From: Candidatus Omnitrophota bacterium
Lineage (GTDB): Bacteria; Omnitrophota; Gorgyraeia; VGKN01
DNA: 64,000 nt
Assembly (NCBI GenBank): GCA_043800345.1
Contig: JAZDNB010000035.1
Coordinates: forward strand, 10,430 to 74,429
Direction of reading: 5' to 3'
Below the pieces are notes generated by a model. That model had not been told where the DNA came from. It worked only from the letters and a program-made list of their open reading frames with translations, and did not search any database. Made by a program: the position numbers and the translations under genes. Position 1 is the first letter of the stretch; every line of letters starts with the position of its first letter. Shown one piece after another: positions 13,857 through 14,813 of the stretch.

Positions 13857-14813
13857 TTAATTGCTGTTTTTAAGATAAATCCATGTTGAAAATTCCCGCG
13901 GTTGTTCTCTGTGCGCATCATCTTGTACGGTCAAGTGTACCTCAACGGCATCGGGGAGCCCGTCGGGATTTCTCTGAACGCCGTTTGCGTCATAATTTGA
14001 CAGTATATTGGCATTTGAGTTCCAGTTTCCGTTATTCGTCCTTAACCAGTGCGAAGCATCAAACCTGTAAGAATAATAAAAATGCACTGTAACAACATTA
14101 TAGCCTAGTTCATTGCTATTGTTGTTTGCAAAATCAAAATCCGGGTTTGTAGCAAAGCACCGCATAAGGGTATTGTCAGAATCGCGCAACCAATACCCGA
14201 CTTCACAAAGGTCCCAGTCTCCGCTGTTGGGTACGGGCGCTACAAAATGAACCTCATCTTGAGTGCTGCCCGTTTTTATACCGCTCCCGCTTTCATATCC
14301 GCGGAACAACATCAGATTTTGTCTAACAACAGCTCCCTGCAATTCTCTTGTCATTTGCTCTAATATAGCCCGCGCATTCTGGATCATTTCCAATTCCCGC
14401 TGCGCCTTACCATAAACAACCGTTGCCGTTCTAAACATCGCATATATAGTCACCGAGCTGAGCGCAAGGATAAACGTCGCCGTTAAAACCTCAATAAAAC
14501 TTAGCCCTTTTCTATTTAACCTGTGAGATATGAAGCTCCACGGCTTAATGGTTCGACTCCGCTCATCATCCTTCGAACCATCCTGAGCTTGTCGAAGGAC
14601 AGCCGTGGTTTCTGACTTTTCGGTCTTCCGCTCATGGAGCGGAATCCCGCCCGAAAACCATTCATCCATGCCTTTACAGACATGGTTTTCTGGGTGCGGG
14701 ATAAACTTTAGTATGTTCACTATAATAAGTTTTAATAAGTCCCTGCTGGCTCGTATATAACCATCAATGCTGGGAAATATACGTGGTAAAATCCTCATTA
14801 TACTGCCTTCCAA
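13857..14813 (-). CDS. gspJ: GspJ-like minor pseudopilin; 5' region interrupted in frame by a 177-nt repeat element
   Basis: The mature part begins NRKG|LSFIEVLTATFILALSSVTIYAMF (prepilin cleavage/methylation motif), followed by a GspJ-like body. No start codon lies directly upstream of the motif. The only in-frame starts (TTG 14813, ATG 14798, GTG 14720) lie beyond the repeat at 14529-14705. The true start is uncertain. Confidence 0.7.
   Translation of the reverse strand: MEGSIMRILPRIFPSIDGYIRASRDLLKLIIVNILKFIPHPENHVCKGMDEWFSGGIPLHERKTEKSETTAVLRQAQDGSKDDERSRTIKPWSFISHRLNRKGLSFIEVLTATFILALSSVTIYAMFRTATVVYGKAQRELEMIQNARAILEQMTRELQGAVVRQNLMLFRGYESGSGIKTGSTQDEVHFVAPVPNSGDWDLCEVGYWLRDSDNTLMRCFATNPDFDFANNNSNELGYNVVTVHFYYSYRFDASHWLRTNNGNWNSNANILSNYDANGVQRNPDGLPDAVEVHLTVQDDAHREQPREFSTWIYLKNSN
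14529..14705 (-). repeat. Structured modular repeat element, copy 1 (177 nt, inside the gspJ-like ORF)
   Basis: Near-identical to 45139-45278 over four blocks (tatgaagctccacggcttaa; agccgtggtttctgacttttcggtct; ggagcggaatcccgcc; gaaaaccatt.atc.atgcctttacagacatggttttctgggt.cgggataaa). It contains several stem-loops, for example CCAGAAAACCAT/ATGGTTTTC.GG and CCACGGCT/AGCCGTGG. Confidence 0.85.

Follow-up and report, generated by a model that had tools for sequence, protein, structure and literature searches.

Transposable elements of the IS200/IS605 type offer the closest described parallel to the repeat reported here. In IS608, the TTAC cleavage and target site lies 19 nt 5' of the left hairpin, a guide, AAAG, stands just 5' of the hairpin foot, and TCAA lies 10 nt 3' of the right hairpin; DNA is neither gained nor lost on transposition, and the target is the lagging-strand template (PMC3201880). 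IS200/IS605 elements of Geobacillus use TTTAT and TTCAT, gene-less minimal derivatives resembling palindrome-associated transposable elements (PATEs) are known, and excision is precise and can be frequent (PMC10055086). Here we analyze a short element in the leader-coding region of a gspJ-like pseudopilin gene, located in a 64,000-nt stretch of contig JAZDNB010000035.1 from a Candidatus Omnitrophota metagenome-assembled genome (MAG). This whole stretch is called the window below. The element and a second copy in the same window are members of a multi-copy, gene-less, hairpin-rich family of interspersed repeats. We consider it probable that the element is a non-autonomous, IS200/IS605-type transposon (a PATE), moved in trans by a Y1 TnpA, and that its insertion was tolerated in a cytoplasmic leader that is cleaved off.

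The element and its empty site in the gspJ-like gene

A preliminary description of the window had placed a 177-nt repeat (59 codons), inserted exactly in frame, at 14529-14705, and a second copy at 45139-45278. The second copy was recovered by a direct-repeat search of the window (93% identity over 76 nt), by pairwise alignment with the first copy and blastn (E = 1e-33), and by nhmmer with a nine-copy profile, which found exactly two full copies in the window (E = 1.8e-38 for the first, copy A, and 1.2e-35 for the second, copy B). The ends were set by comparing at least 13 copies of the family and five reconstructed empty sites. Copy A proved to be in frame and open as described, but it measures 171 nt (57 codons), not 177: position 14529, an A, belongs to the flank and lies outside the element. 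The register remains ambiguous by 2 nt: AT is present at both junctions. On the minus strand, the region reads GTG AAC ATA CTA AAG TTT ATC CCG CAC CC ... GGA GCT TCA TAT CTC ACA GGT TAA ATA GAA AAG GGC TAA GTT TTA TTG AGG.

The host open reading frame (ORF; 13857..14813, minus strand) stays open through copy A, with no stop codon in the frame of the insert. Its product has a class III signal (Gly-1, a hydrophobic N-terminus and Glu+5) and is encoded in a G-H-I-J-K operon, with T2SSG, GspH, an N_methyl protein, a T2SSK/HHH_3 protein, GspF and GspE as neighbors. It matched T2SSJ weakly (16.9 bits, below the cut-off); its orthologues carry PF11612 and PF07963. As the preliminary description had it, a GTG lies upstream of the element, at 14720, and a prepilin cleavage motif, KG↓LSFIEVL, follows downstream.

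All five orthologues (61-71% identity over the full length, 213-231 aa) lack the insert. Four have leaders of 9-15 residues: VKILQPIFQNTDKKG↓VTLVEIL, MKILLPIYLNINKRG↓ITIIEIL, MFPGTDNRG↓LSLIEII and MKRFNQAKG↓VTLVELL. For the fifth, P0010, the annotated start is an internal Met, although its locus (L034) reads VKILLPTYLNINKRG in the gspJ frame. Element-free relatives with short leaders of the predicted kind therefore exist. Compared with them, the window carries 83 extra codons (a leader of 98 residues against 15), or 249 nt, and this excess is fully accounted for by a 78-nt tandem duplication and the 171-nt element.

The duplication concerns the overlap between gspI and gspJ. In the orthologous DNA (L034, L036 and L037), the 3' end of the gspI-like gene contains the start codon of gspJ. 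In the window, ATG 14798 and GTG 14720 are exactly 78 nt apart, and the cores of the two duplication units, D1 and D2, agree at 23 of 42 positions, a value reached by 3 of 20000 shuffles. Read in the gspI frame, D2 holds a relic, YSEHTKVYISQVK followed by a stop codon, that matches the real end of GspI, YNEDFTTYISQH followed by a stop codon, in the pattern ..Y.E....YISQ... The duplication is old and separated gspI from the gspJ leader before the element entered; in each of the three orthologous loci, the two genes overlap. Copy A's flanks of 58 nt and 17 nt are repeated nowhere and are accounted for by this duplication.

When exactly 171 nt are removed, so that TTTAT is joined to ATCTCAC, the leader becomes VNILKFISHRLNRKG↓LSFIEVL, which has 15 residues and aligns without gaps to the 15-residue leaders of the orthologues. 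A short class III leader had been predicted for the element-free gene, and this held; the predicted sequence, MNILKSHRLNRKG, did not, as scarless removal gives MNILKFISHRLNRKG, longer by two residues (FI). Only this exact removal, with no leftover duplication, restores both the YISQ relic and the gspJ frame.

With the element in place, the leader counted from GTG 14720 has 72 residues, in line with the minimum of about 70 given earlier; that estimate had missed the in-frame ATG at 14798, which extends the leader to 98. GGAAGG lies 7 nt upstream of ATG 14798, which is the positional equivalent of the orthologue start codon, and no Shine-Dalgarno sequence was evident upstream of GTG 14720. The deposited protein P0006 (V1893_03960, 100% identity, 313 aa) starts MRILPRIF at ATG 14798 and has an apparent leader of 98 residues; this start may be the one actually used. 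The idea that ATG 14798 is the sole true start and GTG 14720 a coincidence was dropped after the duplication analysis. Table 1 collects the positions.

Table 1. Features of the gspJ-like gene and of the two copies, in window positions (position 1 is the first base of the window).
Feature	Position	Strand	Description
Copy A	14530..14700	-	171 nt = 57 codons, from CCCGCACCC to GGAGCTTCAT; within codon 7 (ATA, Ile) of the gspJ-like leader; placed by family alignment, nhmmer and scarless removal
TTTAT target / transposon-adjacent motif	14701..14705	-	Directly 5' of copy A; pre-existing, its TAT being a Tyr codon of the duplicated GspI relic
Left subterminal hairpin CCATGTCTGTAAAGGCATGG	14666..14685	-	15 nt in from the left end; preceded by AAAA (candidate left guide); resembles the right hairpin
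Central hairpin CGGGATTCCGCTC-CAT-GAGCGGAAGACCG	14621..14649	-	Kept across subfamilies with compensatory changes (helices 2 and 3); in L039 and L041, the stem is perfect over 11-13 bp
Right subterminal hairpin CCACGGCT...AGCCGTGG	14538..14608	-	Followed by AGCTTCAT; the hairpin foot is separated by 8 nt from TCAT, the internal end motif; helix 4
Rest of the GspJ-like gene	13857..14507	-	Gly(-1) codon 14507-14505; mature pseudopilin from 14504 (LSFIEVL...); intact to the stop codon
GTG start codon of the D2 copy of the gspJ 5' end	14718..14720	-	Leader of 15 residues without the element, 72 with it; orthologues start GTG/ATG-A-A/G... KIL
D1, first unit of the 78-nt tandem duplication of the gspI-3'/gspJ-5' overlap	14721..14798	-	Holds ATG 14798-14796 and the real gspI stop codon; in frame with D2; aligned to L034, L036 and L037
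D2, second duplication unit	14701..14720 and 14472..14529	-	Interrupted by copy A
Upstream GspI-like minor pseudopilin gene (N_methyl motif)	14764..15192	-	3' end overlaps the gspJ start in orthologues
Copy B	45140..45273	-	Intergenic, with TTTAT (45278-45274) directly 5' of it; 134 nt, a length not divisible by 3
Sigma-70-type promoter match TTGACA-16-TG-TAAAAT	45282..45309	-	11 of 12 consensus positions; just upstream of copy B; consensus match only

Copy B ends 22 nt ahead of the ATG of a DUF5679 zinc-ribbon gene (44971-45117), with the AGGAGG Shine-Dalgarno sequence of that gene in between. If the promoter match were used, transcription would start at about the 5' end of copy B, and the copy would form the 5' untranslated region (UTR) of this gene. 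An RsfS-like gene and then argS lie downstream.

Other parts of the pseudopilin operon deserve mention in their own right. Two of its proteins are of unusual size for such components, and both are conserved in the orthologous locus L034: one of 538 residues (9188-10804), whose L034 orthologue matches PilM_2 and PilN as a PilM-PilN fusion, and a GspK-like one of 714 residues that includes an HHH_3 domain (11710-13854). Elsewhere in the window, a 62-nt direct repeat occurs in three copies (18247-18308, 19914-19975 and 21069-21130; 73-82% identity) inside three adjacent paralogous ORFs. A GPTGCGKTT P-loop is present in two of these ORFs (571 aa and 359 aa), which resemble GspE- and PilT-type ATPases, and the repeat has the look of conserved coding sequence, not of a mobile element.

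The repeat family and its other in-frame insertions

Further copies were found only in Candidatus Omnitrophota MAGs and on unassigned metagenome contigs. The junction 19-mer GACCGAAAAGTCAGAAACC occurs on six contigs of the Candidatus Omnitrophota MAG DeMMO3_15 (JAGVOB01), and its remaining matches in the genome collection were due to chance, as were the only three matches in a metagenome scan with the same 19-mer. In viral contigs, an 18-mer had no match and a 16-mer had chance matches only. The MAG from which the window derives (locus tags V1893_) holds a third copy, in V1893_02395 (P0004), and more divergent copies on the metagenome contigs L029-L033 and L038-L043 were reached via peptide matches. 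With the element peptide as query, a word-indexed protein search lacked sensitivity and did not recover even the protein encoded in the window, and exhaustive phmmer was used instead; against 1.84 billion representatives, nine proteins matched the 59-residue peptide, mostly short spurious ORFs.

The copies share a common plan. Read along the sense strand, they begin with CCCRCACCCAG, a hairpin and GATGAATGG, followed by a central hairpin (CGGGATTCCGC...GCGGAA..CCG), an A-rich linker, a third hairpin in which CCACGGCT and AGCCGTGG enclose a loop, and the end AGCTTCAY. The left and right hairpins are similar to each other in the types of copy A, L029, L041 and L043, and nearly identical in the L029 subfamily. 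Some members form head-to-tail arrays, with three units each in L031 (2-322; period ~124 nt) and L043 (3550-3931; period 126-129 nt), where the TTCAC end of one unit abuts the CCC... start of the next.

The loop tips, or stems, carry extra hairpin modules that recur in differing combinations (the loops of L017, L018, L024 and L032, and the module of copy A). The one in the right-hairpin loop of copy A is a nested 55-nt module (~14546-14600) that L039, P0004 and P0031 share. The L039 version matches it at ~90% identity, though the rest of both elements is much more diverged. These nested modules suggest a second, smaller mobile hairpin family that targets the loops of the element.

Predicted folds were far more stable than those of shuffled sequences, with -72.4 kcal/mol (z = -4.5) for copy A and -60.6 kcal/mol (z = -7.4) for copy B. 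Across ten copies from at least three subfamilies, 89% of the cells of 33 proposed base pairs were paired, compared with 28-45% when the partners were slid. Base-pair changes on both sides were seen in 12 pairs, none of 500 shuffles reached the observed values, and three helices are conserved with compensatory changes. A search of the whole window against Rfam 15 gave no match at the gathering threshold, and the hits on both copies at E <= 10 were noise of at most 20 bits. Short motifs resembling hammerhead and hairpin ribozymes, C/D boxes, attC sites and tRNAs were also considered and rejected: they were not conserved between copies and had no covariance-model support.

Four further genes hold scarless, in-frame relatives of copy A, which brings the number of empty sites reconstructed from sequence to five, including gspJ. 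The first, on contig L021 of DeMMO3_15, encodes a 776-residue BamA (five POTRA domains and Omp85, by Pfam), and its ATG overlaps the stop codon of an upstream PPIase gene. A 99-nt copy lies 16 nt after this ATG. Scarless removal after TTCAT joins MKWRF to IVILFSSFALINNAGITTLAQD and gives MKWRFIVILFSSFALINNAGITTLAQD in full, a textbook signal peptide; a search for BamA orthologues to confirm this empty site returned no matches.

The second case is a GspI-like pseudopilin (e.g. L039 1895-2494) in another T2SS-like operon on L038-L040, which consists of GspE, F, G, the GspI-like gene with its copy, a K-like gene and PilMN. Here a 195-nt copy sits after GGG TTT AC, at the G↓FT of the prepilin motif. 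Without it, GGG TTT AC is joined to T TTC ATT GAA and the protein reads MILKTGNSHLPLG↓FTFIEVM, i.e. G↓FTFIEVM. The same allele, with its 195-nt copy, is present in contigs from three metagenome samples.

In the two remaining cases, the copies lie close to the C-terminus. A GIY-YIG protein on L041 has a 129-nt copy after TTTAC; removal restores an ending of NPGFTDLYPDIIG before the stop codon, with NPGFT joined to DLYPDIIG. On L043, three 129-nt units follow TTTAC 8 nt ahead of the stop codon, so that the protein gains 129 residues before ending in ...TPG; its empty site reads ...EEGFTPG. The intragenic copies and units (171, 99, 195, 129 and 3 x 129 nt) are all divisible by 3, in frame and stop-free. 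Intergenic copies include lengths that are not divisible by 3 (134, 194 and 124 nt) as well as copies of 99 and 102 nt.

Transposition class and fate of the pseudopilin

Several features of the ends point to the IS200/IS605 type. We found no terminal inverted repeats: the window contains no inverted repeats of 40 nt or more, and the consensus ends, CCCRCACCCAG... and ...GGAGCTTCAT, are not complementary. Nor was there a target-site duplication: in all five reconstructions, the coding sequence comes back only when the element is taken out without a scar. The independent copies are preceded by TTTAT (five), TTTAC (four), TTCAT (one) or TTTGT (one). In tandem arrays, the TTCAC of the upstream unit acts as the 5' flank, and we attribute the arrays to this resemblance between the right end, TTCAY, and the target.

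Subterminal hairpins lie ~15 nt in from the left end and, on the right, are followed after 8 nt by TCAT, TCAC or TCAA at the end. Together with the 5' flank, these traits are hallmarks of IS200/IS605 single-strand transposition. In some copies, a candidate guide may vary with the target: TTAT is accompanied by AAAA in copies A, B and L024, and TTAC by AAAG in L029/L030 and L041 or by AAGG in L043. Between the A type (AAAA/TTAT) and the L029 type (AAAG/TTAC), the last base of guide and target changes together, and the L029 subfamily combines TTAC, AAAG and TCAA.

Orientation is biased as well. All sizeable gene-like ORFs in the window lie on the minus strand, which is G-rich (plus-strand GC skew uniformly ~ -0.10). 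The top strand of the element is the sense strand of all window genes, and ~11 of 12 copies are in sense orientation, a bias that insertion into the lagging-strand template would explain.

We therefore propose the following route, in which each step is conditional. A Y1 (HUH) TnpA encoded elsewhere in the genome would move the element in trans as single-stranded DNA and insert it directly 3' of TTTAY, in peel-and-paste style and without a scar. Excision of copy A would leave a donor joint of AAAGTTTAT and ATCTCACAGG and a circle junction of GGAGCTTCAT and CCCGCACCC. In the open frame of the element, TTTAT and TTTAC encode Phe-Ile and Phe-Thr, which would make the GFT codons of prepilin motifs natural targets.

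Class III prepilin leaders do not leave the cytoplasmic side and are cut off at Gly-1. The 57 inserted residues are hydrophilic (mean hydropathy -1.16, 9 K+R, 10 D+E) and contain no membrane-like segment, so that the first strongly hydrophobic stretch of the long-leader protein is the pilin helix itself. Most likely, in our analysis, the ribosome reads through the element and the leader is then removed: a prepilin with a leader of 72 residues (from GTG 14720) or 98 (from ATG 14798) would be made, its leader would remain cytoplasmic and be cut at Gly-1 by prepilin peptidase, and the mature pseudopilin would be unchanged, which would make the insertion nearly neutral. We prefer read-through because neither the KG↓LSFIEVL site nor any of the mature part is damaged, and the same logic applies to the n-region of the BamA signal peptide. 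Tolerance through leader cleavage is plausible and fits the other insertions. A survival filter that combines a tolerant site with a length divisible by 3 would account for BamA, the GspI-like protein and the two C-terminal cases. As excision would be scarless, any loss of function would be reversible.

A number of observations weigh against this interpretation. The minimal copies on L021, L023 and L025 have a different left hairpin, unrelated to the usual one; L032 (AAAT) and L039 break the simple pairing rule between guide and target; and no clear covariation of the right end was seen among the copies. No tnpA (by tblastn with an IS608 TnpA query) or full-length insertion sequence with these ends was found in ~192 kb. 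With 9-15 residues, the leaders of the orthologues are far shorter than one of 72-98 residues. In the GspI-like protein, the residue preceding FTFIEVM is now Ser; this replacement of Gly-1 may block cleavage, and not all insertions need be harmless. The cases found by protein search are biased towards in-frame copies, L021 having been found by DNA alone. Finally, core segments of copies in two different MAGs (L017 1433-1509 and L025 7048-7102, each against window 14599-14676) are 96-98% identical over 55-77 nt. This is high for a purely selfish repeat, above what neutral drift in separate species would lead us to expect, and could reflect a host-level function, constraint from the transposition machinery or recent transfer.

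The most serious rival is that the insertion switched off or crippled gspJ, either because the RNA structure blocks initiation or elongation or because the leader prevents targeting or cleavage; the open frame would then mark a recent event, and excision could restore the gene. We judge this unlikely for copy A, but it is a serious rival, especially for the GspI-like case with its Ser at Gly-1. No canonical start codon lies between the element and the cleavage site, the strong predicted fold (-72 kcal/mol) begins 20 nt after GTG 14720, and IS200/IS605 excision is precise and can be frequent (PMC10055086). Against it, the mature part (215 residues) is undamaged and matches the orthologues in its degree of conservation, the element begins beyond the initiation footprint of the ribosome for both candidate starts, and all five intragenic copies are in frame and stop-free, a pattern suggestive of selection for read-through.

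A mobile repeat of another class appears doubtful. It could be a MITE (miniature inverted-repeat transposable element) moved by a DDE enzyme, a repetitive extragenic palindromic (REP) sequence or REPIN mobilized by a RAYT, or the passenger of a recombinase of the IS110 type. The minimal copies lack the left hairpin expected of a TnpA substrate; on L030, moreover, an IS256-family gene (Transposase_mut, 802-2052) lies ~600 nt upstream of a copy. A prepilin-type N_methyl gene stands between the two, and we saw no relation of the ends. The lack of terminal inverted repeats speaks against such classes, and a model with a 2-bp TA target duplication was rejected: it frameshifts gspJ and destroys the YISQ relic. 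The units, at 99-195 nt with three different hairpins, are also unlike REPs of 20-40 nt or inverted REP doublets, and the end tetranucleotides match those of IS608.

We give slightly less credence to the view that the element acts mainly as RNA in the operon, as a stabilizing or processing structure, a translational brake between gspI and gspJ, or a guide-RNA-like scaffold, and that its spread to many 5' regions was selected for that reason. The conserved helices and the z-scores of both copies are what such a role would predict, as are the sense orientation of most copies, the position of copy B as a 5' UTR just downstream of the promoter match, and the high conservation between MAGs. However, Rfam offers no support even at E <= 10, the genes next to the copies are mutually unrelated, arrays and nested modules are typical of mobile DNA, and insertion into the lagging-strand template explains the orientation bias equally well. 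The preliminary description had raised an RNA-level regulator as an alternative, and the wobble statistics do not support it: with 12 G.U pairs on the sense strand against 9 A.C mismatches (wobbles on the other strand), the counts are similar and do not single out the RNA strand.

Two bolder variants would give the element a function, and we regard them as improbable. In one, scarless excision and re-insertion by TnpA would turn the copies into reversible switches of minor pseudopilin and outer-membrane biogenesis genes, and so cause phase variation of the Omnitrophota pilus or secretion machine; in the other, the unusually conserved central hairpin, A-rich linker and right hairpin would form an omega-RNA-like guide scaffold that serves a TnpB-type nuclease in trans, with the adjacent gene sequence as guide. 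Either way, the ORF ends that encode Phe-Ile or Phe-Thr would have evolved for residing in export signals.

A reading of the 59 codons as real protein under selection, be it an extended leader or a domain at the N-terminus, is refuted by the orthologues and the other copies: the frame is open and the deposited annotation includes it, but every orthologue lacks it, the second copy is intergenic and frame-shifted, and the protein-level conservation that would have marked a real domain was not found, with only nine matches among the 1.84 billion representatives, frame-shifting insertions and deletions between copies, and variation that preserves base pairs in the stems and not amino acids. Selection for open frames was likewise rejected: two of the three sense frames of the element core are open, no more than chance would allow in a 99-nt sequence of 56% GC.

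Comparison with known systems

The family adds an undescribed repeat, with ends given to the nucleotide, to a poorly studied and uncultivated phylum; our literature search found no paper linking Omnitrophota with IS605-type elements. It also supplies five natural empty-site reconstructions of scarless, in-frame residence in coding DNA, and suggests a rule for survival in genes: the element persists in cleaved, cytoplasm-facing export signals and in C-terminal tails. For the window itself, it turns an anomalous 313-residue "hypothetical protein" into a GspJ-like pseudopilin with an apparent leader of 98 residues, and it calls for caution in annotation, since proteins of other Omnitrophota MAGs may carry such inserts. 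If the long-leader prepilin is processed, the known range of leader lengths for prepilin peptidase would be extended.

The combination of terminal inverted repeats and target-site duplication that marks a classical MITE is absent from the element. REP/BIME, BOX, ERIC and Correia repeats resemble it in being multi-copy, structured, modular and mosaic, and often co-transcribed with flanking genes. REPs, however, measure 20-40 nt, Correia and ERIC repeats have terminal inverted repeats, and Correia repeats have a TA duplication, none of which applies here. Rickettsia palindromic elements (RPEs) and intragenic MITEs (PMC10969869) come closer in lifestyle: they are palindromic, in frame and stop-free, contribute a peptide at tolerant sites and have intergenic copies too. 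Unlike RPEs, which belong to an unrelated lineage, the element is intergenic in most of its copies, its intragenic copies lie at protein termini (export signals and C-terminal tails), and its ends suggest a defined transposition chemistry.

That chemistry brings the comparison back to IS200/IS605 elements, as exemplified by IS608, and to PATEs. Like them, the element is strand-asymmetric, lacks terminal inverted repeats and inserts without a scar 3' of a short T-rich motif; it has hairpins at both ends, a 4-nt candidate guide, an internal TCAA, TCAC or TCAT at the right end, and the orientation expected of insertion into the lagging-strand template. It departs from IS608 in its spacings (15 and 8 nt, compared with 19 and 10 nt), in one subfamily with an unrelated left hairpin, and in having no TnpA, TnpB or full-length parent identified. 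It also has an extra conserved central hairpin, an A-rich linker and small hairpin modules in its loops. Its distinctive trait is that it turns up repeatedly, and in frame, within export signals that are cleaved off, among them the GFT codons of a prepilin motif.

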